Below the pieces are notes generated by a model. That model worked only from the letters and a program-made list of their open reading frames with translations. It searched no databases and had not been told where the DNA came from. This document shows positions 40,281 to 53,192 of a stretch of 64,000 nt of DNA, in pieces. The stretch covers positions 54,252-118,251 of IMG/VR virus record IMGVR_UViG_3300032313_000668; one strand, given 5' to 3'. The first letter of the stretch is position 1; every line of letters begins with the position of its first letter. Source of the DNA: a virus. The translations under genes and the position numbers were made by a program.

Positions 40281-40838
40281 ATGAGCGCAATAGACAGAAT
40301 CAAAGAAACCATCACTGAAGCGTTGATGAACTCCCGCGGCTTTGATGAACTTAGTAAAGAGCAAACCCCACTTGAGTGGAATCCAGAAGTAGAAGATTCT
40401 CAATACTCTCTATTAAAAGAAGACGTCGACTTCGTAGTTGATGAGTTTTTAGAAGAGATTCAAAAAGTAGATGAAGATGAAGATGAAGACGAAGATGAAC
40501 ATACACACGACCACGGACATGGACATGACCACACACATGAACATGAAAACATCTTTGACGAGTATGGCCACATTAAACGTACTCAAACCAACACAACTTC
40601 GGCAGTAGTATTTATTTTTATGGATGCAGGTACAGGGAAACCACGTTACGTCTCAGATGTAAAAGAGTGGCTTGCAAGAGTTGAACGTCTTGGTATTCCA
40701 GATAATACAGAGATTGAAGGAACTCTCCATTTATCTGTTGACATAAATGAACCCTACATAGAAAGAATTGAGTGTGGAGGGTGCGGAACAAAAGACGTTC
40801 TTCTCACCGTTCACTCCTGTGAGGAAACACCTTGTTAG
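40281..40838 (+). CDS. Protein with Asp/Glu tract, His-rich tract and CxxC
   Basis: DEDEDEDEDEHTHDHGHGHDHTHEHE; CGGC...HSC. Confidence 0.75.
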   Translation: MSAIDRIKETITEALMNSRGFDELSKEQTPLEWNPEVEDSQYSLLKEDVDFVVDEFLEEIQKVDEDEDEDEDEHTHDHGHGHDHTHEHENIFDEYGHIKRTQTNTTSAVVFIFMDAGTGKPRYVSDVKEWLARVERLGIPDNTEIEGTLHLSVDINEPYIERIECGGCGTKDVLLTVHSCEETPC

Positions 40839-40858
40839 GTCCGCTCTTCGGTTCCATC

Positions 40859-41203
40859 ATGATGAGGGAGGCGTATCGCAATGGTGACCGCTTCCACATC
40901 TACCTATCAGGTCCCATGACGGGATTACCTGACTACAACCGTCCTGCATTCGACAAAGTAGCAAAAGAACTTCGTGCTCAAGGTAAGTCTGTATTCAACC
41001 CAGCAGACATCGGACCAAAAGAGAACATCATGCCTAGAGCGTGGTACATGCGTAAGGATTTAGAAGGATTGATGAAATCTGACTCTGTTTATGTCCTTCC
41101 AGGTTGGGATACGTCAGAGGGAGCGAAGCTAGAAGTTGCTATTGCTAAAGAGCTTGAGCTTCCAATAATATTCACCACCACCCTCAAGAAAAAGGATGTA
41201 TAA
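40859..41203 (+). CDS. DUF4406 / nucleoside 2-deoxyribosyltransferase-like protein
   Basis: IYLSGPMTGLPDYNRPAF...NPA...LPGW..SEGAKLE. Confidence 0.85.
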   Translation: MMREAYRNGDRFHIYLSGPMTGLPDYNRPAFDKVAKELRAQGKSVFNPADIGPKENIMPRAWYMRKDLEGLMKSDSVYVLPGWDTSEGAKLEVAIAKELELPIIFTTTLKKKDV

Positions 41204-41517: not shown

Positions 41518-43560
41518 GTGGCTATTGCATTCTCATTTCGTCTTTCAGAAGACTTCGTTTCAGGTTTCAAAAGCAAGACAGCACCATTCGGTTATCGAGA
41601 TGCAGGTGGCAACTCTGTAGGAGAAATTACTTTTCTTCGTACCTATTCTCGTAAGAAAGAGGATGGAACTAAAGAAACTTGGGCAGAAGTTTGCGAGCGC
41701 GTAACTAACGGTACGTACTCCCTTCAGAAGGACTATGCGAAGCAACAGCGTCTTCCATGGTCTGATGCAAAAGCACAGTCATCTGCTAAAGAGTTCTACG
41801 AGCGTCTATTTGAGTTAAAGTGGACACCTCCAGGTCGTGGACTTTGGGTAATGGGAACTGACATTGTTAACGTCCAGAAGAATTCTGCAGCACTCCAAAA
41901 CTGCGCATTTGTTTCTACTCAAGAAATGACAAAGTTAAATCCAGGAAAGCCTTTTGCTTTTTTGATGGAGGCATCAATGCTTGGCGTTGGCGTTGGCTTT
42001 GACCAACTTGGCGCTGACAAAGACTTCACTATCTATGAGCCACAGGGTGAAGATATCTACCTAATTCCTGACACTCGTGAAGGATGGCAGGAGTCAACCG
42101 TTGCACTTATCAACTCTTTCTTGAAAGAGAACCAGAAGTCAATTGAATTTGATTATGCAGAGATTCGTCCATACGGAGCACCTATTAAGTCATTTGGTGG
42201 AACAGCATCAGGACCAGAGCCACTAGTTCTTCTACACGAAGTTATTCGTAAGATGTTTACAGGACGAGCTGGAGAAAAGCTAACTCGCACAGACATTGCT
42301 GACATTGGTAATTTGATTGGACGTTGTGTAGTATCTGGCAATGTTCGCAGAAGCGCAGAGTTGCTCATCGGTCGCATTGACGACGAAGACTTCCTCAACC
42401 TTAAGAATTCAGAACGTTTCCCTGAAAGAAACTCATACGACCCAGAAAATCCTGGATGGGGATGGATGTCTAACAACTCTGTCGTTGCAGAAGTTGGAAC
42501 TGACTTTGCGCCTATCGTTGACGGAATCGTTCGCAACGGTGAGCCAGGTGTCTTATGGATGGACGTATCTCGTAAGTACGGTCGTCTCGCAGACCCAATT
42601 AACAACAAAGACCACCGCATCATGGGATACAACCCTTGTGCAGAGCAGTCCCTCGAGTCCTATGAAATGTGTACGCTCGTCGAGACATACCTCAACCGTC
42701 ACGAAACAAAAGAAGATTACCTACGCACTCTAAAGTTTGCGTACCTTTACGCTAAGACTGTAACTCTTCTACCAACACATTGGGAAGAGACCAACGCAAT
42801 CATGCAGCGTAACCGTCGCATCGGCACGTCGATGTCTGGCGTTGCTAACTTTGCTGACCGCGTTGGTCTTCCAGTCCTCCGTGAATGGATGGACGAGGGC
42901 TACACTACCGTAAAGAAATATGACGAAGTGTATTCAGAATGGCTCGGTATTCGTGAGTCAATCAAGACCACGACCGTTAAGCCATCAGGCACCGTTTCAA
43001 TTCTTGCAGGTGAATCTCCAGGAGTTCACTGGACTCCAGGTGGTAAGTTCTTTAATCGTGCAATTCGTTTCTCTAATAGCGACCCAATGCTTCCGTTGTT
43101 TACACTTGCGAACTACCGCATTGAACCAGCATCAGAGTCTCCAGATACAACCTCAGTAGTGTTTTTCCCAATCAAGTCATTGGCAGAGCGTGCAGAGCGT
43201 GACGTATCAATCTTCGAGAAGATGTCATTGGCTGCAACTGCACAGCACTACTGGTCAGATAACTCGGTATCAGTAACAATCAGCTTTGACCCTGAGACAG
43301 AAGCTAAGGATGTACCTACAGTTCTTCATATGTTCGATGGACAGTTGAAGACAGTTTCCTTCCTACCCTCAGGAAACTTTACATATCCACAGATGCCTTA
43401 CACACAAATCACCGAGGAAGAGTACGAGAAATACTCAAGCGAACTTTTCCCAATTGACTTTGCTGGGGTCTACGCAGGGCTTGCAGCAGACGCGATTGGT
43501 GAGGCTTACTGCACCACAGACGCTTGCGAAATCAAGCTTGTAACTGAGAACAATAAGTAA
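41518..43560 (+). CDS. nrdJ: Adenosylcobalamin-dependent ribonucleotide reductase, class II (monomeric RTPR type)
   Basis: PPGRGLW, LQNCAF, GNVRRSAE, NPCAEQ, CTLVE, TTVKPSGT, C-terminal CTTDAC. Confidence 0.95.
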   Translation: MAIAFSFRLSEDFVSGFKSKTAPFGYRDAGGNSVGEITFLRTYSRKKEDGTKETWAEVCERVTNGTYSLQKDYAKQQRLPWSDAKAQSSAKEFYERLFELKWTPPGRGLWVMGTDIVNVQKNSAALQNCAFVSTQEMTKLNPGKPFAFLMEASMLGVGVGFDQLGADKDFTIYEPQGEDIYLIPDTREGWQESTVALINSFLKENQKSIEFDYAEIRPYGAPIKSFGGTASGPEPLVLLHEVIRKMFTGRAGEKLTRTDIADIGNLIGRCVVSGNVRRSAELLIGRIDDEDFLNLKNSERFPERNSYDPENPGWGWMSNNSVVAEVGTDFAPIVDGIVRNGEPGVLWMDVSRKYGRLADPINNKDHRIMGYNPCAEQSLESYEMCTLVETYLNRHETKEDYLRTLKFAYLYAKTVTLLPTHWEETNAIMQRNRRIGTSMSGVANFADRVGLPVLREWMDEGYTTVKKYDEVYSEWLGIRESIKTTTVKPSGTVSILAGESPGVHWTPGGKFFNRAIRFSNSDPMLPLFTLANYRIEPASESPDTTSVVFFPIKSLAERAERDVSIFEKMSLAATAQHYWSDNSVSVTISFDPETEAKDVPTVLHMFDGQLKTVSFLPSGNFTYPQMPYTQITEEEYEKYSSELFPIDFAGVYAGLAADAIGEAYCTTDACEIKLVTENNK

Positions 43561-43604
43561 TAGAATAAAAGAGTTCGCCCCCTAATCTTAGGGACAGACG
43601 ACGG

Positions 43605-43638
43605 AAAAGCCCCTCTTTACGGAGGGGTTTTTCTTTTG
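43605..43638 (+). terminator. Intrinsic terminator
   Basis: CCCCTC stem paired with GAGGGG, followed by a T tract. Confidence 0.8.
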
Positions 43639-43843
43639 GTACGCTTCCACCATGACACTTTTGACAACAGACATACTGGCAATCATTATTGCCCTCATTG
43701 CATCATCGGGGCTCATGCTGTGGACCCTTCGAATTAATTGGCTTTTAAGGAAAGAAAATCTTGACTTAAGGCAAGCACTCCTTCGATACACTAAGGGCCG
43801 CTCAAACAAGAGCGACTAGTCGATTCGAATAGAGGTAACCAAA

Positions 43844-44668
43844 GTGCCTGAAGCTAAAGGTACGGCAGCTCGAATTATTGAAGTTGCTAAAGCAGAAGTC
43901 GGAACTATTGAAGGACCGAAAGACAACGAAACAAAGTATGGCAAGTGGACTGGAATGAACTTCCAACCTTGGTGTCAATCATTTGTTTCTTGGTGTGGAT
44001 TCACATCAGGACTAGACCCAAAAAAGTATCCAAAATCAGCAGCAACAATTGCAGCTTCCGACTGGTTTAAGAAGAACAACCGTTGGGCAGATGCTCGCAA
44101 TGATGACCCAACTCCTGGCGATTGGATTTATTTTGACTTCCCAGATGATGGTGTCAATCGAATCTCTCACGTTGGTATCTGTATCAAGAACAACGGTAAT
44201 GGAACTATCCAAGTTATTGAAGGCAACACTTCAGGAACTGCAAAGGGAGACCAGCGCAATGGCGGAATGTGCGTAGAGAAAACTCGCGCATATGTTAAGG
44301 ACAACAAGCTAAAGCTTCTAAATGCTGTAGTTGGTTGGGGTCGTCCAGTTTATGTTGGTGAAGAGAATCTCCCATTACTTTCAAAGGTTGGCTCATCTGA
44401 TGCACCTGTTGCAAAAGCTCCAACTGCAAAAAAGCCAGTGCCTGTTGCGCAACACGCAACACCTGCAGCCTTTACACCATTTAAAAAAGGTGCAAAAGGT
44501 CCTAAGGTTAAAAAGGTACAGACTGCACTAAAACTTAAGGCAGACGGAATTTTTGGTGATGCCACAGAGAAAGCAGTAATTGCCTTTCAAAAAGCAAACA
44601 ACCTTGAATCTAACGGAACTGTCGGTCCAAAGACTTGGGCTGCTATTGTTAAGTTAGGAGGTAAATAA
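43844..44668 (+). CDS. CHAP-domain endolysin with C-terminal PG-binding domain
   Basis: QPWCQSFVSW, SHVGI, IEGNT; DGIFG..T..AV..FQ...GTVGPKTW. Confidence 0.9.
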   Translation: MPEAKGTAARIIEVAKAEVGTIEGPKDNETKYGKWTGMNFQPWCQSFVSWCGFTSGLDPKKYPKSAATIAASDWFKKNNRWADARNDDPTPGDWIYFDFPDDGVNRISHVGICIKNNGNGTIQVIEGNTSGTAKGDQRNGGMCVEKTRAYVKDNKLKLLNAVVGWGRPVYVGEENLPLLSKVGSSDAPVAKAPTAKKPVPVAQHATPAAFTPFKKGAKGPKVKKVQTALKLKADGIFGDATEKAVIAFQKANNLESNGTVGPKTWAAIVKLGGK

Positions 44669-44856
44669 TGAAAAACGCATTGAAGCGACTAGGGCTATTC
44701 CTAGGATTAACTGAAGGCTACAAAGCTAATGCTATTGACCGCGACGGCGACGGGATTGTTCAAGAAGGAACAAAAAGCGAGCGTCCAGTTGCAAAGAAAA
44801 AAGCACCAGCTAAAAAGCCAGCTGCAAAGAAACCAGCAGCACCAAAGAAAAAGTAA
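44668..44856 (+). CDS. Small protein with DxDxDG motif and PAKK histone-like tail
   Basis: DRDGDGIVQEGT; KKKAPAKKPAAKKPAAPKKK. Confidence 0.7.
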   Translation: MKNALKRLGLFLGLTEGYKANAIDRDGDGIVQEGTKSERPVAKKKAPAKKPAAKKPAAPKKK

Positions 44857-44877
44857 AGTAGACGTAGAGAGGCTGAC

Positions 44878-45387
44878 ATGAGGTTTAGGGATTTCGGGGA
44901 GACCAAGCAAACCGTTAAACTTTCCGACGACCTCGTGTCAGTTTCTACTAGTTCTTTTCAAGATTCAGCACACATCAACTATTTGATGGCAGTAAATAAA
45001 ACGCACTTAGAACCCTGGAAAACGACGGAATCACCAACAGAGTCTCCAGAGAACTACTTCTTTACTGTGAAATACAAACACGTGACAGTCGGGCAAGTAG
45101 TTCTCTGGCGTTTCAAAGATAATCCAAAGTCATGCTCTATTAGCTATTGGATTGGTTTGGAGTTCTGCGGTCGAGGATTGGCCACTGCTGCTGTTAACTT
45201 AGTAACAACTTACGCATTTGAAAAGCTGGCTGTAACCTCCATAGAAGCCATGATTCATGAGGATAACCTCTCCAGTATTCGGGTTGCTGAGAAGGCGAAA
45301 TTTACAAAATCAAAAACACTTAATAATTTAACTGTTACCAGTCAGCTGGCTACAGGACAGGTCTTGTACACACTTATACAAAAATAG
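44878..45387 (+). CDS. GNAT acetyltransferase, RimJ/RimL type
   Basis: N..HLEPW, ISYWIG...GRGLAT.A, N..S.RVAEK..F. Confidence 0.8.
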   Translation: MRFRDFGETKQTVKLSDDLVSVSTSSFQDSAHINYLMAVNKTHLEPWKTTESPTESPENYFFTVKYKHVTVGQVVLWRFKDNPKSCSISYWIGLEFCGRGLATAAVNLVTTYAFEKLAVTSIEAMIHEDNLSSIRVAEKAKFTKSKTLNNLTVTSQLATGQVLYTLIQK

Positions 45388-45464
45388 ACCAACTCCTTAA
45401 TTGTTACCGTTATTTGGTAGTAACACACATTCCAAATAATTACGGAAAACTAAGGAGACACATA

Positions 45465-46136
45465 ATGTCAACATGGATAAGGCCAGTAGATGGCGGTTCA
45501 ATTACTCACGACTTCACAAAGCACAAGACTCGTACGCCAGCATCAAAGAACCCTGGAACTGATTACGCTGTCGCAACTGGTACACCCATCAAGGCAGTTG
45601 CTGATGGAACCATCACTGGAATTGTAACAACCTTTACTGGCTCTGGTGGTCGAATGATTTTCCAGAGCTTCCCATCAGGCCACAACGCAGACTACCTACA
45701 CCTATCACGCATTGATGTTGTTGCTGGTCAGCAAGTCAAACAGGGTCAGGTCATCGGACTGGTTGGTGGCTCAGGCTTAGGTAAAGAAAACGGCTACGGC
45801 GCACACCTTCACTTCTCATTCCGAGTTGGTGGCAAACCAACAATGGGCGCAGGCAACATTGATTACGAAGTTTTCCGTGGAGCACCTACAAGTGCTGCAC
45901 CTGCAGCTCCAAGTGTTGCACCTGCTAAAGCTGGAACAAGAGCGTATCCAGGAAGAATGCTTAAAAAAGGAGAACCTGCTAACGCAGATGTTCTTTACCT
46001 ACAAAATAAACTAGGCGTAAACCCTACTGGTCCATTTGGTCCAAAGACTCACGCTGCTGTTGTTTCTTTCCAGGCGTCAAAAGGTTTGACCGCAGATGGA
46101 ATTGTTGGCCCTAAAACTTGGGCAGCATTAGGTTAA
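45465..46136 (+). CDS. M23 peptidase with PG-binding domain
   Basis: NPGTDY, YLHLS, GAHLHF; ADGIVGPKTW; AAGGAG RBS. Confidence 0.85.
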   Translation: MSTWIRPVDGGSITHDFTKHKTRTPASKNPGTDYAVATGTPIKAVADGTITGIVTTFTGSGGRMIFQSFPSGHNADYLHLSRIDVVAGQQVKQGQVIGLVGGSGLGKENGYGAHLHFSFRVGGKPTMGAGNIDYEVFRGAPTSAAPAAPSVAPAKAGTRAYPGRMLKKGEPANADVLYLQNKLGVNPTGPFGPKTHAAVVSFQASKGLTADGIVGPKTWAALG

Positions 46137-46152
46137 TAAAGAAAGGTTTTTA

Positions 46153-47136
46153 ATGAGTTGGTACCCAAACGTTTCAGGAGTACAAGATAATGGATTTGGA
46201 GGCAGTCGTAACGGACAGCCAATAAACGGAGTGGTTATCCACCACGTTGCAGGTACCAATGGATTATCTTATGTAGCTAATGCTAATACTAGAAACTCCC
46301 ACCCTACATATCACATTGCCAGAAGTGGGGCTGTTACTGGAATTGTAAATCCTAGTCGCAGACCTCACTCAACTGGTGGTGCTCCAGACCCAAACGCTGT
46401 TTCTTTCGAAGTAGATAATTCATCTACTGGAGGAGATTGGCCTATCTCTTCTGAGTCTTTAAATTCTTTGATTGATGTGATTGTTTATCACGCAAGTCAG
46501 TCTCCTAGAGCAGGTAGAGGTTTTGCTAAGAATCAACCATCTGTAGCTCAATCTGAGTTCTTTATTGCATGGCACTCACAGTACAAAGCAACTGCTTGTC
46601 CTGGACCATTCATAATGTCTCAACTTGACTACATAGTTGATGAGTGCAACAAAAGAGCTTCAGGTGTTTCACCTTCCGCTCCAGCACCAGCACCAGTTAG
46701 CAATTCAGGAAAGCCTGCTTTGTCTAGCCCGCTGAAAATAGGCTCGACAGGGGAAGTAGTTAAGTACATTCAGTCTGTTCTAGGAATCACAGCAGACGGT
46801 CAGTTTGGACCCATTACTGACAGAGCAGTGAGAGCATTCCAGTCAGCAAACGGTCTACAAGTAGATGGGGTAGTTGGACCAATTACTTATGGCAGATTAA
46901 GTGCTCCTACCCCCACCCCAACCCCAACCCCAGTGTCAACAAAGCCAAGATTATCTAGCTCGCTAAAGAGGGGCTCAACTGGAGCAAACGTTAGGTATCT
47001 ACAATCTGCTCTTGGAATTAAATCCGATGGTCAGTTTGGGCCTATTACCGACAAAGCAGTTAGAGCTTTTCAAAAAGAACAAGGTCTAAAAGTAGATGGG
47101 ATTGTTGGTCCGCTTACCTGGGGAAGAATTGCATAA
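46153..47136 (+). CDS. Amidase_2 endolysin with two PG-binding domains
   Basis: VVIHHVAG, WH...ATACPG; two DGQFGPITD.AVRAFQ...DG.VGP.T repeats. Confidence 0.9.
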   Translation: MSWYPNVSGVQDNGFGGSRNGQPINGVVIHHVAGTNGLSYVANANTRNSHPTYHIARSGAVTGIVNPSRRPHSTGGAPDPNAVSFEVDNSSTGGDWPISSESLNSLIDVIVYHASQSPRAGRGFAKNQPSVAQSEFFIAWHSQYKATACPGPFIMSQLDYIVDECNKRASGVSPSAPAPAPVSNSGKPALSSPLKIGSTGEVVKYIQSVLGITADGQFGPITDRAVRAFQSANGLQVDGVVGPITYGRLSAPTPTPTPTPVSTKPRLSSSLKRGSTGANVRYLQSALGIKSDGQFGPITDKAVRAFQKEQGLKVDGIVGPLTWGRIA

Positions 47137-47176
47137 CGCAATAAACAAAAAGTAAAAGACAAGGAAAATAAAAACA

Positions 47177-47824
47177 ATGGCAAAATCGCAGTACCCTATT
47201 GATGGAAAAAAGGGTAAGGCTTGGAAAATTACAAGTCCGTTTGGATGGCGTATACATCCCATAGAAAAAACTAAAAAGCATCATAATGGCGATGACATTT
47301 GGGGTAGCAACCCAAAGATTTACATCGAAGCATGGCACGATGGAACGGTGGTATATGCAGGTCCCTCAAAGTTAAAAAACTCTGATGGCTCTCTAGGTGG
47401 CATCGGATACTACGTGGATATTCGTTCAAAGATTAATGGCAAGTGGTATGTCGCTCGCTCTGGTCACATGGCTGAAGGCTCACTAAAAGTTAAGACTGGT
47501 CAAAAGGTTGAGGCTGGAACGATTCTTGGAATCATGGGAAACACTGGCGCATCTGCTGGTCGTCACCTTCACTTTGAAATTGTTGAAGGTAAGACCCACC
47601 GCTGGGACCTAAACGGTAAGGGTTTTGTTAGCCCAATTAAATTTGTTGAGACCGTTATGGAGTGGGAAAAGATGAAGGCATCTGCTCAGGAAATAACTCC
47701 TGAAGATGTAGTTTCTACTGCTGCTCCAAGTCTTGACGTTGACAAGCTCAAAGCAAAGCCTAAACCAAGCAAAAAAGAAAAGCTTGTAAACCCAGTACCA
47801 GGCTTTGCAAAAAAGACTAAATAG
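47177..47824 (+). CDS. M23 peptidase
   Basis: SPFGWRIHPI..HNGDD, GHM, GNTGASAGRHLHFE. Confidence 0.9.
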   Translation: MAKSQYPIDGKKGKAWKITSPFGWRIHPIEKTKKHHNGDDIWGSNPKIYIEAWHDGTVVYAGPSKLKNSDGSLGGIGYYVDIRSKINGKWYVARSGHMAEGSLKVKTGQKVEAGTILGIMGNTGASAGRHLHFEIVEGKTHRWDLNGKGFVSPIKFVETVMEWEKMKASAQEITPEDVVSTAAPSLDVDKLKAKPKPSKKEKLVNPVPGFAKKTK

Positions 47825-47847
47825 GCTATACTTTTAAATAGTTCGAA

Positions 47848-47886
47848 AATAACCCCCGCCTTTACCTCCATAAAGGTGGGGGTTTT
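47848..47886 (+). terminator. Intrinsic terminator
   Basis: AACCCCCGCCTTTA...TAAAGGTGGGGGTTTT. Confidence 0.8.
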
Positions 47887-47910
47887 CGCTTCTCATAGTA
47901 GAATATTTTG

Positions 47911-48084
47911 ATGGCAACCTATGAATACAAGTGCGACAAGGAGCACATCTATACTGAAGTCAGAGGTATGACTGAAGACCAAAAGGTCACAAAATGCCCT
48001 GAGTGCAGTGGAGATTTGAAGCGCATCTTCTATTCAGCCCCTGTACAGTTCAAGGGGCGCGGCTTTTATAAAACAGGAGGATAA
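47911..48084 (+). CDS. FmdB-family zinc-ribbon protein (not in the ORF track)
   Basis: MATYEYKC...CPECSG.LKRIF..PV.FKG.GFY.T. Confidence 0.85.
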   Translation: MATYEYKCDKEHIYTEVRGMTEDQKVTKCPECSGDLKRIFYSAPVQFKGRGFYKTGG

Positions 48085-48309
48085 ATGCAAACCGAGATTT
48101 ACTATCTACTTTGTTACGATGTTGTTGAAAGAAAATGGTACGCGGCTGACCAAATGCTTGGCAACCTTACTCACAACAAAGGTCAAGTTTTAGAGGGAGA
48201 GGGAGCAGAGGGTAAGTTTCGACCACTCGAAGGCGACCTGGAAATTGATATTGACTTTGATAACACAGAAGCTTTAAGCGAGTTTATTAGAAACCAAAAC
48301 AATGCCTAA
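48085..48309 (+). CDS. Hypothetical protein
   Basis: AGGAGG RBS. Confidence 0.75.
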   Translation: MQTEIYYLLCYDVVERKWYAADQMLGNLTHNKGQVLEGEGAEGKFRPLEGDLEIDIDFDNTEALSEFIRNQNNA

Positions 48310-48493
48310 GGCTAAAAAGCCACCTAGCCCGATGGTTCTCGAGGTTGTTGATGACTATCCTGAGTGGAAGCATAAAATTCTTAAGCTTGTTGCACGCTTG
48401 TTATTTTTAAAAAGAACAAATTATGTGATACTTATTCACACTATAAAGACAGAGGATAAAAATGGACGAAAACCTAGAGCACGAGTTTCTTAA
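48302..48493 (+). CDS. Hypothetical protein
   Basis: Overlapping small ORF. Confidence 0.5.
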   Translation: MPKAKKPPSPMVLEVVDDYPEWKHKILKLVARLLFLKRTNYVILIHTIKTEDKNGRKPRARVS

Positions 48494-48638
48494 CCTAGAG
48501 TTCCGTATTCTTGTTGCAGAAGAAGCTATTCAAGATGTGCAGAAAAGAGCAACAGCACTTCTGTCCGATATACAAGACTGGAAGAAGAAGTATGCAACTG
48601 CTATAAGCGATGACGAAGAATACTGGAAGGCTGACTAG
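48462..48638 (+). CDS. Small coiled-coil protein (not in the ORF track)
   Basis: GAGGA RBS; MDENLEHEFLNLEFR...; coupled to the deaminase. Confidence 0.6.
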   Translation: MDENLEHEFLNLEFRILVAEEAIQDVQKRATALLSDIQDWKKKYATAISDDEEYWKAD

Positions 48639-49021
48639 TGGTTAGACCAGACTGGGACACTTACTATCTAGGTATTGCTAAGGCAGTCTCTGCTCGAGGT
48701 GATTGTGTCCGTGCTCAACATGGAGCAGTTGTTGTTAAAGACTACAAGATTGTTAGCACTGGTTATAACGGAACACCTCCAGGTGATGACCGTTCTTGTG
48801 GTGCTACAGGTCAATGTCCCCGTGCACTTGACCCAACTGCTAAACACGCAGAAGGAAACTATGACCTTTGTTGGTCAACTCACGCAGAGGCAAATGCTCT
48901 TTTAAGAGCAGGCTGGTGGTCAGAATTAAATAAAGCCACTATTTACATCACAGGTAAGCCTTGTCCTGGATGTCTTAAACTTATTAACTCGGCAGGAATC
49001 GAAAGGATTGTCCACGCATGA
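48638..49021 (+). CDS. dCMP deaminase
   Basis: RPDWD.YY, TGYNG, HAEANA, PCPGC. Confidence 0.9.
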   Translation: MVRPDWDTYYLGIAKAVSARGDCVRAQHGAVVVKDYKIVSTGYNGTPPGDDRSCGATGQCPRALDPTAKHAEGNYDLCWSTHAEANALLRAGWWSELNKATIYITGKPCPGCLKLINSAGIERIVHA

Positions 49022-49242
49022 CGGTAACTCTCTACACCACACCCAACTGTGTACAGTGCAACGCAACTAAAAAGCATTTAGACCGCAGAGATATTCCATA
49101 CGAAGTTGTTGACCTAACAGAGAACCCAGACAAGTTAGAGATGTTTCTTTCTCAAGGTTTACGCACGGCTCCAATTGTTGTAACTGATAATGGAATCTGG
49201 AGCGGGTATCGTCCTGCAGAGATTGACGCCATAAAAAAGTAA
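49018..49242 (+). CDS. nrdH: NrdH-like glutaredoxin
   Basis: CVQC, APIV, WSGYRP. Confidence 0.9.
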   Translation: MTVTLYTTPNCVQCNATKKHLDRRDIPYEVVDLTENPDKLEMFLSQGLRTAPIVVTDNGIWSGYRPAEIDAIKK

Positions 49243-49254
49243 TCAAACAGCCAA

Positions 49255-49330
49255 TGGACCGTAGCTCAGTTGGCAGAGCGGGGCACTGTTAATGCCTAGG
49301 TCACAGGTTCGAGCCCTGTCGGTCCAGCCA
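49255..49330 (+). tRNA. tRNA-Asn(GTT)
   Basis: Full cloverleaf; anticodon arm GGGCA-CTGTTAA-TGCCT; encoded CCA. Confidence 0.95.
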
Positions 49331-49331
49331 A

Positions 49332-49409
49332 GCGGGTGTCGCACATTCGGAGGTGTACTCAGTTTATAGGATGGCTGGGAGGAAGTTGGTTCGATTCCAA
49401 CCACCCGCA
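49332..49409 (+). ncRNA. tRNA-like RNA with a 12-nt anticodon loop
   Basis: Acceptor GCGGGTG/CACCCGC, D stem GCAC/GTGT, stem CTCAG/CTGGG enclosing TTTATAGGATGG, T arm GTTGG-TTCGATT-CCAAC. Confidence 0.8.
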
Positions 49410-49500
49410 CTTTCAATCTCACACAATATTTCAAACGGTAAAATTTTTCTATGAAGTAAATTACTTCAGCAAGACAAGCACAGAAATTGAGAGTGAGCAT

Positions 49501-49908
49501 ATGGCACTTCCAATTGCTGGAGGCAAGATAACTACACCCTTCGCTAAGCCAGGAAAGATGTGGTCAACAGGAAGACACGAAGGTGTGGATTTCGCTTGCC
49601 CCAAAGGAACACCAGTCCTTGCTTGTGCAGATGGCACTGTCGTCGGTACAGGTATTTGGGGTGGTGCTTACGGAAAACATTCGTTAGTCATCAGGCATAA
49701 AGTTGGAGAGCAAACCCTCTTCACAATGTATGCACATGGACAAAAACTTCATGTGAAAAAAGGTGACAAGGTGGTTAAGGGACAGCATGTTCTGGACGCA
49801 GGAGCAGAAGGAAATGTAACTGGTCCTCATCTCCACCTAGAGTGTCAAGCAAAGCCAACATGGACTAGGGGTGGAGGAATCAACCCAGCAGGTCTATTGG
49901 CTCTGTAA
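49501..49908 (+). CDS. M23 peptidase (catalytic domain only)
   Basis: HEGVDF, YAH, GNVTGPHLHLE. Confidence 0.9.
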   Translation: MALPIAGGKITTPFAKPGKMWSTGRHEGVDFACPKGTPVLACADGTVVGTGIWGGAYGKHSLVIRHKVGEQTLFTMYAHGQKLHVKKGDKVVKGQHVLDAGAEGNVTGPHLHLECQAKPTWTRGGGINPAGLLAL

Positions 49909-49970
49909 TAAAACAAAGCAAACGGGATAGGTTGTTGAAACCTGTCCCGTTTTGCATTAGGCTTTTAGAT

Positions 49971-50432
49971 ATGAAGAAACCAGTTATTGCAACAATTGTT
50001 CTTGCTTTACTAGGTGTAGGAGTTGTCTCCTTATACCAGCCACCAGCAGATTGCGTAAGCATTTATATCGACTATGGCTCCCTTGATTCTGCCGCTACTT
50101 TAGAGAAGTGCATTCCCACTTCAGGAGAAGCTCATGCCCTTGAGCTTTTAGCTAGTGCTAAAATTACTACCGAGGGAACCCAGAAATACGGCAACGCTGT
50201 TCTTTGTCGTCTTAATGGTCTTCCTGATGCCACAGTAGAAAGCTGCGAAGAAATGCCTCCCGCAGAAGCATATTGGGCAGTGTATGTAAAAGAGCACGAA
50301 GTATTCCCGATTCCTTTCAATACTGCAGGTGAGTGGGGTTGGGCACAGACTGGAATCGACGAAGTTCACCTTCACAATGGTGATTCGCTTGGTTTAGTAT
50401 TTATTGAAAACGGAGAAGTTAGGTACCCATGA
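49971..50432 (+). CDS. Membrane-anchored DUF4430 / transcobalamin-C-terminal-like protein
   Basis: N-terminal TM; ALELL...EGT..YG..VLCRLNGLP...C...PP..AYW.VY...W.WAQTGI....L..GD.L.L.F. Confidence 0.65.
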   Translation: MKKPVIATIVLALLGVGVVSLYQPPADCVSIYIDYGSLDSAATLEKCIPTSGEAHALELLASAKITTEGTQKYGNAVLCRLNGLPDATVESCEEMPPAEAYWAVYVKEHEVFPIPFNTAGEWGWAQTGIDEVHLHNGDSLGLVFIENGEVRYP

Positions 50433-50602
50433 TTACAAAGACACGTCCTTCAGAGACTGTAACGACAGAAGTCAAAGAAGAGGCGCGTCTTGATTGGGAA
50501 CAAATCGCCAAGGCTACAATTCAGCTAGGGTTTGTCATTGCAACTATGTTTGTTGCACATTCGCTTTACATATCTGTGTGGCGTATGATGACAGGACACT
50601 AA
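50429..50602 (+). CDS. Small single-pass membrane protein (not in the ORF track)
   Basis: ATGA overlap with the upstream gene; C-terminal TM. Confidence 0.6.
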   Translation: MITKTRPSETVTTEVKEEARLDWEQIAKATIQLGFVIATMFVAHSLYISVWRMMTGH

Positions 50603-50675
50603 GCCTCGGTCGTCTAGCGGTTAGGACATCTCCCTCTCACGGAGAAGGTCGTGGGTTCGAATCCCATCCGAGGTA
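50603..50675 (+). tRNA. tRNA-Glu(CTC)
   Basis: Cloverleaf; TCTCC-CTCTCAC-GGAGA. Confidence 0.95.
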
Positions 50676-50684
50676 CGGAAACTA

Positions 50685-50755
50685 TCCCTGTTCGTCTAAT
50701 GGCAAGACTCTGGTTTCTGGCACCAGCAATTGAGGTTCGAGTCCTTGGCAGGGAG
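50685..50755 (+). tRNA. tRNA-Gln(CTG)
   Basis: Cloverleaf; CTGGT-TTCTGGC-ACCAG. Confidence 0.93.
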
Positions 50756-50771
50756 CATATTAAGGAGAAAA

Positions 50772-51338
50772 ATGGTAAACCTAACTCGCATTTACACCAA
50801 GACTGGTGACGACGGAACAACTTCACTTGGCGACATGAGTCGCACATCTAAGAATGACCCAAGACTTGAAGCGTTCGCTACCGTCGATGAAGCAAACTCT
50901 TATATAGGAGTTGCTCTTCTACATGTAGATAACTACAACATTCGTACCTTGCTAGTTAAAATTCAAAATGACATGTTTGATGTTGGTGCTGATTTATGTA
51001 CTCCAGTAGTTGAAGAACCAAAGATTACCCCCCTTCGCGTTACACAAGAGCAAATTGACTCATTAGAAGCAGAGATTGATAAATACAACTCAGCACTAAA
51101 GCCACTTCGTTCTTTTGTTCTGCCAAGTGGAACTCCAGCATCTGCACATCTACATGTTGCTCGCACAGTTGTTCGTCGCGCAGAACGAGCAACCTGGCAC
51201 GCTATTCACCAGTTCGGTGAAGGTGTTAGTGTGTTAACTGCTAAGTACTTAAATCGTCTTAGTGACCTTTTGTTTGTTCTGGCTCGATACGAAAACCGTG
51301 AGCTAGGAGATGACCTCTGGGTTCCAGGTGGTCTATAA
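50772..51338 (+). CDS. pduO: ATP:cob(I)alamin adenosyltransferase, PduO type
   Basis: RIYTKTGDDGTTSLG, TVDEANS, IQNDMFDVGADL, FVLPSG, ARTVVRRAER, YLNRLSDLLF. Confidence 0.95.
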   Translation: MVNLTRIYTKTGDDGTTSLGDMSRTSKNDPRLEAFATVDEANSYIGVALLHVDNYNIRTLLVKIQNDMFDVGADLCTPVVEEPKITPLRVTQEQIDSLEAEIDKYNSALKPLRSFVLPSGTPASAHLHVARTVVRRAERATWHAIHQFGEGVSVLTAKYLNRLSDLLFVLARYENRELGDDLWVPGGL

Positions 51339-51442: not shown

Positions 51443-52231
51443 ATGATAAGTCAGCCTTATAAAGACATTCCAGACAGCATCTCTTTGCTTATGGACCAGC
51501 TAATTGACCCCGCAGACTCTTATCATCTTGGGCACGCTCGTCGCCACGCTCGTACGGTTCAAACTCTTCTAGACCAAAAACCAAAGGGAAAGCTCCTAGA
51601 ACTAGGTACTAGCCATCTTGTTCCAATTATGTTGAACCATCTTGCTCCTAAACTTGAGATTCATGTGACTGACTTTGACTTAGATAAGCCAAAGAAGGGA
51701 AAGATGTTTGTATCTATGGGAGCTGACAAGCTAGAAGTTCCCGTCTACCGTGTAGACCTAGAGACCCAACAACTTCCAGTTGATGATGCCACTTTTGACT
51801 ATGTACTTTGTTGTGAAGTCATAGAGCACCTGGAGCTAGACCCAATGTTTATGATTTCTGAGATTAATCGAGTGTTAAAGCCAGGTGGCACCCTTATCCT
51901 CACCACCCCCAACATCACAAGTAGTCGAGCTATTTGGAAGATTCTTCGTGGACTTGAGCCTTACTTTTACATGCAGTATCGCCACAAGCCAGCTTTATAT
52001 CGTCACAACTATGAATACAGCCCATACACCATAACTCAAGTGCTCAAAGCTGGTGGATTTGACGGTTCGGTGTGGACTGAAGATTCTTTTGAAGACGGGA
52101 CAACAGAAGATATAGCAAAATTAAAGTCTGTAGGCTACGCTATGAGTAGTCTTGGAGACAACATTTTTGTTGTAGCTAAAAAAGTGAACACAGTAATTAA
52201 CCGCCATCCAGCAGTAATTTACGCAGACTAG
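51443..52231 (+). CDS. Class I SAM-dependent methyltransferase
   Basis: LLELG, FDYVLCCEVIEHL, RVLKPGG.LILTTPN. Confidence 0.9.
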   Translation: MISQPYKDIPDSISLLMDQLIDPADSYHLGHARRHARTVQTLLDQKPKGKLLELGTSHLVPIMLNHLAPKLEIHVTDFDLDKPKKGKMFVSMGADKLEVPVYRVDLETQQLPVDDATFDYVLCCEVIEHLELDPMFMISEINRVLKPGGTLILTTPNITSSRAIWKILRGLEPYFYMQYRHKPALYRHNYEYSPYTITQVLKAGGFDGSVWTEDSFEDGTTEDIAKLKSVGYAMSSLGDNIFVVAKKVNTVINRHPAVIYAD

Positions 52232-52238
52232 GATAACG

Positions 52239-53192
52239 ATGCCAAAGCAAGACGAGAGCTACCCAACAATCCATCAAATCGGTGGAGTGATTACCGATGT
52301 GCGCCGTCTAGTTGACCCTACAAATAAAAACTGGGGAGCGACAAATCCTTCTATTGGTTACCATCCTAAAAAAGGACTTGCTGTAGCAATTCGTTCTAGT
52401 AACTATGTCATTATGGGAAATGGTTCTTATACCGTCACAGAGGGAACAACCATTAAGTCCCATGTTTGGTTTGCTGAATTAGATAAAGAGCTTAAGTGTA
52501 AAAACCTTAGACGAATTGACGTCTCTGGAACCGATATCAAAATCGAACGCGGTCTCGAGGACCCAAAGTTATTTTGGCGTGACGGTGGTTGGTACTTCAC
52601 ATGCGTGACTATGGAGCAGGGACACACCCCCGTTGCTCGCATGGCAATTGCAAAGCTTGATGCAAAGTGCACAAAAGTTGTTGAGTTGACGAAGTTTGCG
52701 GGCGTCGATGCAGAACGTCCCGAAAAGAACTGGATGTTGCCATACGAACCAAACGAAAACTTTGACTTTATTTATGGTCCCAACGCAACCATAAAAGACG
52801 GGCTTTTAATAACTCGTATGAGTGACCACCCAGCAATTTCTATGCTTCGTGGTAATACAAATCTTCACTTAATGGAAGACGGAACATACCTTGGGGTCAT
52901 GCATCGAACCTTTGTAAAGCAGCAGACCAACTGGGTACCAACCACCTTCGGAACAACTTCTGTATATCTTCGTACTTATGTCCACTATTTCGTACAGTTT
53001 GATAGTAAGGGCATGATTATTGCTCTCTCAAGGGGTTTTAACTTCCACAAGCCAGGAGTCGAATTTGCTGCTGGATTAGTAGTCAAAGATAAAAATGCTC
53101 TTATATCTTTTGGTAGAGAGGATATATCTAGCCACATTGCCACTATGCCAATGGAGACAATCCTCAAATCACTACTGCCAGTGAAGTACTAA
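52239..53192 (+). CDS. Beta-propeller glycoside hydrolase/phosphorylase-like protein (GH130/GH43-like)
   Basis: NPSI, GLEDPKLF, EKNWMP-like motif, VEFAAGL. Confidence 0.7.
   Translation: MPKQDESYPTIHQIGGVITDVRRLVDPTNKNWGATNPSIGYHPKKGLAVAIRSSNYVIMGNGSYTVTEGTTIKSHVWFAELDKELKCKNLRRIDVSGTDIKIERGLEDPKLFWRDGGWYFTCVTMEQGHTPVARMAIAKLDAKCTKVVELTKFAGVDAERPEKNWMLPYEPNENFDFIYGPNATIKDGLLITRMSDHPAISMLRGNTNLHLMEDGTYLGVMHRTFVKQQTNWVPTTFGTTSVYLRTYVHYFVQFDSKGMIIALSRGFNFHKPGVEFAAGLVVKDKNALISFGREDISSHIATMPMETILKSLLPVKY

Follow-up and report, generated by a model that had tools for sequence, protein, structure and literature searches.

A putative viral module for cobalamin capture, activation and use beside a class II ribonucleotide reductase

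Vitamin B12 (cobalamin) is made by few microbes and is limiting for many aquatic bacteria. A parallel from nutrient uptake is PstS of cyanophages, a substrate-binding protein that the phage encodes and that works for a transporter of the host. In cells, transcobalamin-like beta-grasp proteins encoded in CbiO/CbiQ operons have been predicted to scavenge B12 (Burroughs et al. 2007, PMC1796856, in the available part of the text), and the isolated beta domain of human transcobalamin is described, in the accessible portion of that source, as binding both cyanocobalamin and cobinamide on its own (PMC5599065). Here we analyse a 64,000-nucleotide stretch of viral DNA (the window), apparently from an actinobacterial phage of lake water, bases 54252-118251 of the 118,251-bp IMG/VR virus record IMGVR_UViG_3300032313_000668, itself judged ~90% complete. 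It encodes NrdJ, an adenosylcobalamin (AdoCbl)-dependent class II ribonucleotide reductase (RNR), a PduO-type adenosyltransferase and, between them, a 153-aa membrane-anchored protein (X153) coupled to a micro-protein. We consider it fairly probable that this phage carries a module for the acquisition, activation and use of cobalamin, comprising extracellular capture, import by the host, adenosylation by PduO and use by NrdJ. The features concerned are:

41518..43560, + strand: NrdJ, monomeric RTPR-type AdoCbl-dependent class II RNR (Pfam, NCBIfam, PHROG)
49018..49242, + strand: NrdH-like glutaredoxin, likely reductant of NrdJ (PF00462, 45.4 bits; phrog_22; C-V-Q-C)
49971..50432, + strand: X153, 153-aa N-terminally membrane-anchored protein, proposed corrinoid-capture protein (alignments, hhalign)
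50429..50602, + strand: 57-aa single-pass membrane micro-protein (ATGA overlap with the X153 stop; conserved C-terminus)
50603-50676, + strand: tRNA-Glu(CTC) (ARAGORN, Rfam)
50685-50756, + strand: tRNA-Gln(CTG) (ARAGORN, Rfam)
50772..51338, + strand: PduO-type ATP:cob(I)alamin adenosyltransferase (PF01923, TIGR00636, solved structures)

An earlier reading of the window from its letters and open reading frames (ORFs), hereafter the sequence-only reading, had placed NrdJ, NrdH, X153, the ATGA-coupled 57-aa protein, two tRNAs and PduO at these positions, and the ORF list together with the tRNA and family scans located all of them there. NrdJ matched RNR_Alpha at 105 bits and RNR-II_ins_dom (PF21995) at 55 bits in the Pfam scan, passed the TIGR02505 equivalog for AdoCbl-dependent ribonucleoside-triphosphate reductase (354 bits, cut-off 340.05) and matched phrog_367 at 2e-139; the NrdH-like protein combines a match to the Glutaredoxin model PF00462 (45.4 bits) with a CxxC motif, C-V-Q-C in translation. 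Neither the class I small subunit NrdB (PF00268), nor CbiQ, nor a B12-binding domain was found in the 118-kb record, so that NrdJ is the sole reductase and the sole B12 enzyme found and the phage appears to be without a transporter of its own. PduO was claimed to be intact and is so, with a full-length match to PF01923 (211.7 bits across profile positions 1-170 of 171), 178 bits against the TIGR00636 cut-off of 108.45, and matches at 1.4e-66 to the solved actinobacterial corrinoid adenosyltransferases 2g2d and 6wgs. Its ATG is preceded by an AAGGAG Shine-Dalgarno and lies 340 nt past the X153 stop, in agreement with the spacing of about 340 bp across two tRNAs noted earlier. The tRNA pair, which separates the micro-protein gene from pduO, is an insertion absent in related phages, whose PduO follows at 116-170 nt.

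The same arrangement was found in many other viruses. Among the best 80 of 91 viral contigs encoding X153 relatives, NrdJ ended ≤300 nt upstream of X153 in 52 of the 72 loci with room (13/27 clusters at 90% identity), PduO lay ≤400 nt from X153 in 56/75 (23/28 clusters), and one or other of these enzymes adjoined X153 in 66 of the 67 loci with both flanks, the sole exception being L022. In one lineage of 10 loci, X153 adjoins a different class II RNR, 27% identical to that of the window. Centred instead on NrdJ, the 80 nearest loci (78-96% identity) held both X153 and PduO within ±10 kb in 7 cases, neither in 73, and never one alone; centred on PduO, X153 adjoined in 64 of the 72 loci with room upstream. 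One of the 'neither' contigs carries the X153-PduO pair farther off, and absence from the ±10 kb flank is therefore not to be equated with absence from the genome. The proposal that the distribution of X153 is tied to nrdJ and pduO is thus upheld, and since the gene arrangement recurs in 80 independent viral contigs it is far from chance. The nearest GenBank phage, the metagenome-assembled Actinomycetia phage DSL-LC01, has an NrdJ 78% identical to that of the window and neither X153 nor PduO. DSL-LC01 and the counts centred on each of the three genes thus show the cassette to be an accessory element, carried along with PduO and located next to class II reductases.

This placement bears on a different role for the pair, in which X153 and the micro-protein would protect the infected cell by superinfection exclusion or receptor masking, mimicking or blocking a host B12-uptake lipoprotein or energy-coupling factor (ECF) complex that related phages use as receptor, and would not feed NrdJ at all. 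Phages are known to encode lipoprotein mimics by which receptors for nutrient uptake are blocked, as Llp of T5 does with FhuA, and the micro-protein is found in phages only. A tree was built in which each 90% cluster of the 80 viral loci was represented once (28 sequences), together with X153 of the window, 13 of the 80 Microbacteriaceae loci and 7 domains taken from 6 further genomes. A 100/98 branch has all 29 viral sequences on one side; drawn with a midpoint root, which is a drawing convention and no result, the viral clade is sister to host-type lipoproteins of Microbacteriaceae. Nothing in such a role would explain a position between NrdJ and PduO across divergent lineages and beside two types of class II RNR, or gain and loss jointly with PduO, and we regard a protective function as decidedly improbable.

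X153 is present in a single copy in the record and begins M-K-K-P, followed by a 17-residue hydrophobic segment. Close relatives number 151 in metagenomes, with 267 cluster representatives at E ≤ 0.001. Four cysteines (C28, C47, C79 and C92, kept in 128-137 of 137 domains), two tryptophans and the motif C-R-x-N-G-x-P...C..M-P-P..A-Y-W...W-G-W-A...G-D are nearly invariant across the family. The sequence-only reading had likened X153 to DUF4430, a likeness that is remote given that Pfam, PHROG and NCBIfam all returned no match to the window protein. Profile-profile comparison (hhalign) was made with 30 genuine DUF4430 domains drawn from 301 sampled Actinomycetota genomes. A profile of 64 X153-family sequences aligned over 110 columns (Prob 73.5, P 3e-5), another run with the smaller of the two X153 profiles gave Prob 70.7 and P 3.8e-5, and a profile of 137 domains gave Prob 94.1, P 1.3e-7 and a score of 46.7 over 102 columns. 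Reversed or column-shuffled controls peaked at 14.9 (31 controls) and 17.5 (41 controls), and none in either set (0/31 and 0/41) reached half the real score. The alignment spans the first strand to the final G-D...hydrophobic strand, in register with conserved DUF4430 positions. Homology of X153 to DUF4430 is thus real, if remote.

Two further lines connect the family to animal B12 carriers. The DUF4430 set itself matched solved structures, namely 3u7z at E 0.0068 and the haptocorrin beta domain 4kki at E 0.056, and sequence similarity of X153 to transcobalamin is detectable only by way of this set. Among ten long X153 homologues scanned, five are fused to SQHop_cyclase/Prenyltrans alpha-alpha toroids, a fold class to which the alpha domain of transcobalamin also belongs, and one carries a weak, sub-threshold match to PF01122 Cobalamin_bind (E 1.8e-4). 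Because these independent fusions accompany the hhalign result, the most fitting reading of X153 is as a Cys-rich, divergent offshoot of transcobalamin-like, predicted beta-grasp domains, one that lies outside PF14478 by that model's threshold. It shares with the DUF4430/transcobalamin-like SLBB clade (PMC1796856, as far as the available text goes) whole-domain profile similarity, a presumed extracytoplasmic location and a predicted role in B12 scavenging, and its cellular homologues, like members of that clade, lie with CbiQ/CbiO-type ECF genes, although the phage itself has no CbiQ. It differs in its four invariant cysteines, in a 15-30-residue insert bearing C..MPP..AYW, in being anchored by a transmembrane helix in the phage and not by lipid, in its micro-protein partner and in its failure to match the Pfam model. 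Compared with transcobalamin, intrinsic factor and haptocorrin (PF01122), X153 has a beta-domain-like module, and some long cellular homologues in bacteria, and only these, are toroid-fused like the two-domain carriers; X153 itself, at 153 aa, consists of one domain, lacks the alpha toroid, and has a membrane anchor and a 57-aa partner.

An ESM Atlas feature search returned DUF4430 at 0.87-0.89 and SCO2322 at 0.87-0.89, which we treat as leads only. The SCO2322 family (NF040672; PF28005 of Pfam 38.1 according to the Atlas) likewise consists of actinobacterial secreted proteins, but cellular X153 relatives score 19.8-34.2 bits at profile positions ~7-57, far below the 85-bit cut-off, and the window protein gave no match, so that X153 was not assigned to it. 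Our literature search found no paper mentioning this family, and hence no function could be added from it. BtuH of Bacteroides, considered as an intrinsic-factor-like comparison, was dropped, as its B12-binding domain is described in the accessible part of the source as having no known structural homologues (PMC8941943).

As to which side of the membrane X153 faces, we infer that its domain is extracytoplasmic and that the N-terminal helix serves as anchor. The opposite orientation would make X153 a cytoplasm-facing, membrane-tethered B12 chaperone or store that keeps cobalamin ready for PduO and passes AdoCbl on to NrdJ, with the four cysteines forming a metal or redox site and not disulfides. 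PduO-type adenosyltransferases do hand AdoCbl directly to client enzymes, as established for the human enzyme; the gene order NrdJ-X153-PduO suggests a physical pathway, and four invariant cysteines could bind metal. The cellular homologues, however, carry lipoboxes and so are exported, others bear SLH or CWB2 cell-wall anchors, and in the viral family K/R precedes the hydrophobic segment in 27/28 sequences with acidic residues after it. These charges and the export of the homologues favour a domain facing outwards, and the chaperone is hardly probable.

X153 is accompanied by the micro-protein. A 41-61-aa ORF follows every viral X153 gene, nearly always overlapping it by ATGA or a few bases, and encodes a basic N-terminal part, one moderately hydrophobic helix containing Asn, Thr and Asp, and a C-terminus of the form W-R-x-x-[T/K]-G-H-stop or Cys variants thereof. 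This ending was present in all 80 X153-centred loci (76 TGH, 2 KGH, 1 C-P-C and 1 C-N-C) and in 6 of the 7 X153-positive NrdJ-centred loci (4 TGH, 2 TGC), the seventh ending Y-C-C; it occurred in 0/73 X153-negative loci and 0/87 cellular loci. Metagenomes yielded 230 homologues of 52-57 aa, with no Pfam family in any of the 120 listed. The sequence-only reading was right about the ATGA coupling of this small membrane protein, yet had treated it as incidental, which its presence in 80/80 loci contradicts: on its pattern of occurrence, the micro-protein is an obligate, phage-only partner of X153. In other corrinoid proteins, cobalt is ligated by the side chains of His and Cys, and the fact that the last residue is always one or the other suggests a cobalt-ligand role for it. 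The one X153 change found to covary with the switch from His to Cys in the partner, V to I, is uninformative.

Cellular relatives of X153 are encoded beside B12-linked transport genes. A scan of one genome per species gave 359 X153 relatives, of which the best 80 were examined; those named to genus are Microbacteriaceae (Microbacterium, Agromyces, Leifsonia and Candidatus Lumbricidophila) and the rest are metagenome-assembled genomes labelled Actinomycetota, Actinomycetes or Microbacteriaceae. More distant X153 relatives are high-GC actinobacterial proteins with lipoboxes. Downstream of the lipoprotein gene and in the same orientation, all 80 Microbacteriaceae loci encode a CbiQ-type ECF T component, followed by a double ATP-binding cassette ATPase (73/80) and an S-like membrane domain (70/80), and the operon adjoins a convergent gene for the B12-dependent methionine synthase MetH in 69/80, all 11 misses being loci cut by contig ends. 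Because these 80 loci are close kin, sampling was widened to the phylum: the X153 family occurred in 13/301 sampled Actinomycetota genomes, and the same T, A-A' and S genes lay downstream in 7/7 fetched loci of other Actinomycetota, one of which (L288) encodes a true DUF4430 protein (33.6 bits) as well. The S-like domain matched ECF S-component models weakly, and above cut-off in the L288 operon (PF12822, 36.8 bits); against the PDB it gave no match, and hence no link to the solved CbrT or BtuM. Of the 7 diverse loci, 2 have a cobalamin riboswitch (RF00174) directly upstream on the operon strand, and 1 has it beside the operon but on the other strand. In the first two it precedes, respectively, a 758-aa cell-wall-anchored protein with an X153-like domain and an SLH protein followed by an X153-like gene. 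Judged by gene content, cellular X153 loci match the arrangement predicted for B12 scavenging by Burroughs et al. (PMC1796856, in the part available), and the earlier suggestion that DUF4430-like proteins of this kind belong to B12-uptake loci is supported by ECF transporter operons in 80/80 and 7/7 cases.

Two of the diverse loci contain further details. In L289 (5873-8384) the riboswitch is followed by the gene for the 758-aa secreted protein, a second X153-like gene and then the ECF genes; the protein, in which a sub-threshold SCO2321/squalene-cyclase-like region is combined with an X153-like domain and with three CWB2 repeats for cell-wall binding, looks like a surface-anchored bacterial counterpart of full transcobalamin. 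At positions 3980-5768 of L288, the opposite strand carries a strong cobalamin riboswitch (91.6 bits) that faces the gene for a family-5 solute-binding protein, which is divergent from the X153-like/ECF/DUF4430 operon.

Taken with the phage synteny, these operons point to a probable joint function of X153 and the micro-protein in scavenging B12 for the virus. X153 would be anchored in the membrane of the infected cell by its N-terminal helix, displaying a disulfide-stabilised, transcobalamin-beta-like domain outside, with the C-terminal His of the micro-protein (Cys in some lineages) probably at the outer membrane face. Together they would capture scarce corrinoid and hand it over to a putative host importer, most likely an ECF-type transporter, given that such a transporter is always encoded with the cellular X153 homologues and that the phage has no transporter component. 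Inside the cell, PduO would adenosylate the cobalamin and the resulting AdoCbl would feed NrdJ, the only RNR of the phage, with NrdH giving reducing power. Corrinoid binding, membrane topology, hand-over to the host transporter and the role of the terminal His/Cys are steps that we infer. The logic resembles that of cyanophage PstS, where a virus supplies an extracytoplasmic capture protein for a limiting nutrient to a membrane transporter of the host; fold, nutrient and transporter class differ, and here the capture gene is co-inherited with the activating and consuming enzymes.

Several observations weigh against such a module. X153 gave no match to Pfam DUF4430 (PF14478; gathering score 23.8 bits) at E ≤ 0.1, lipoprotein relatives in five genomes gave none (0/5) even at E ≤ 1, and only 1 of 67 X153-family members reached E 0.0033; the residue pattern given in the sequence-only reading is present in the translation. 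The X153-family profile found no solved structure in the PDB, just a chance-level hit to CDC14B2 at E 0.09. Co-folding of X153 with the micro-protein gave a median ipSAE of 0.46 (runs 0.00, 0.46 and 0.52; best of 3 controls 0.00), with runs agreeing in at least 50% of contacts and a partner pLDDT of at least 61. This reaches a mark that 58/80 solved complexes and 2/110 mismatched pairs also reach, but at ipSAE ≤ 0.60 it is reached by just 7 of the 80 solved complexes and by both passing mismatches; the pass therefore falls in the weak class and lends the modelled pairing weak support. Most close NrdJ phages (73/80 loci, ±10 kb) do without the cassette, and with 8/72 PduO loci lacking X153 by hidden Markov model search and 5/28 X153 clusters lacking an adjacent PduO, the three genes are not obligatorily linked. 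No cobalamin riboswitch was found in 10/10 Microbacteriaceae loci, in 4/7 diverse loci or in the window, and an ECF operon of Lactobacillus sakei with transcobalamin-like proteins has been proposed, in the available part of the preprint, to import heme (bioRxiv 10.1101/864751).

The last two points, the riboswitch being absent from 14/17 cellular loci searched, lead to a rival in which X153 and its partner capture a tetrapyrrole or metal other than complete cobalamin, such as cobinamide or another incomplete corrinoid, heme or cobalt, their adjacency to PduO and NrdJ reflecting a broader theme of cofactor salvage. The affinity of the isolated transcobalamin beta domain for cobinamide, reported in the consulted portion of PMC5599065, fits it too, as does the fact that, by their Pfam name, CbiQ-type T components serve cobalt transporters as well. 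On the other side, no corrin-completing or heme-using phage gene was detected, the sole B12 enzyme needs AdoCbl, and cobalt alone would be useless without a synthesis pathway; at the cellular loci, moreover, cobalamin riboswitches and MetH flank the operons. We hold another ligand to be quite improbable and retain cobalamin as the probable cargo.

A more specific version of cobalamin capture is conceivable, if on balance unlikely. X153 and the micro-protein might constitute a two-piece minimal transcobalamin, in which the anchored, predicted beta-grasp grips the corrinoid and the micro-protein offers its terminal His/Cys as axial cobalt ligand, the role of the alpha domain in animal carriers, before the complex docks on the ECF importer of the host. 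The virus would thereby re-wire B12 uptake in B12-limited lake actinobacteria, and the cassette would be gained or lost with PduO as B12 supply dictates.

Each part of this system is of a known kind, whether the class II reductase, the PduO enzyme or the ECF-linked relative of transcobalamin-like, predicted beta-grasp domains. The sequence-only reading knew of no phage with such a three-step module, and our literature search likewise found no published description of phage-encoded B12 capture, activation and use. As far as that search shows, what is new is the viral assembly of the parts, the transmembrane helix in place of a lipid anchor, the phage-only micro-protein, and the proposal, on the strength of phage synteny, of a B12 role for an actinobacterial lipoprotein family. 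If true, the influence of phages on host nutrition would extend beyond intracellular metabolism to the acquisition of vitamins, and a vitamin would join phosphate among the few nutrients whose extracellular binding protein can come from a phage. Phage synteny would also help to predict what an uncharacterised lipoprotein family and its ECF transporter do. The ectodomain of a 153-aa protein is small and tractable for binding and structural work, and the partner represents a new conserved micro-protein with a metal-ligand-like terminus.

The window has a G+C content of 43-49%. The stretch studied occurs in 20 DNA sequencing runs (17 studies), most of which carry the label lake water; no RNA run is listed as containing it. 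X153 had no match among 50,697 GenBank phage records; PduO matched 15 such records, none of them an actinophage, and similarity to GenBank phages at the DNA level was limited to the tRNA-Gln. The host of DSL-LC01 is predicted only as Actinomycetia in the accessible part of its description (PMC10611076). Scans for promoter and terminator consensus sequences returned chance-level results. By eye, an 11-bp hairpin followed by TTTT is visible at 49922-49954, between the stop of an M23 gene and the start of X153, and is missing from the list of the terminator scan; given this element, X153 may start its own transcript.

Between nrdJ and X153 lie five peptidoglycan-hydrolase genes (43844-47824 and 49498-49908), a block that looks like an insertion because nrdJ directly abuts X153 in most related phages. 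They are listed here with two neighbouring genes:

43844-44668: CHAP+PG_binding_1 (Pfam)
44878-45387: GNAT acetyltransferase, amid the hydrolase genes
45414-46136: M23+PG_binding_1 (Pfam)
46153-47136: Amidase_2 with two PG_binding_1 (Pfam)
47177-47824: M23 (Pfam)
48638..49021, + strand: dCMP/cytidine deaminase, nucleotide-metabolism neighbour (PF00383, 63.3 bits)
49498-49908: M23 (Pfam)

Shortly upstream of nrdJ, a DUF4406/nucleoside 2-deoxyribosyltransferase-like protein (40832-41203) is a further nucleotide-salvage gene in the module. A 185-aa protein encoded at 40281-40838, immediately before the genes of nucleotide metabolism, has no Pfam family; it contains a run of Asp/Glu, then an alternating stretch rich in His, and pairs of Cys at the C-terminus, and it looks like a metal-binding protein. 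At 49332-49410, ARAGORN calls a 79-nt tRNA-Tyr with the unusual anticodon ATA, for which the Rfam tRNA score is only 44.5 bits. After pduO, the interval 51443-53192 encodes a 262-aa S-adenosylmethionine (SAM) methyltransferase and a second protein, of 317 aa, that has no Pfam family. Both genes recur near the cassette in several related contigs, and in DSL-LC01 genes annotated as methyltransferase and beta-mannosyltransferase lie upstream of nrdJ.

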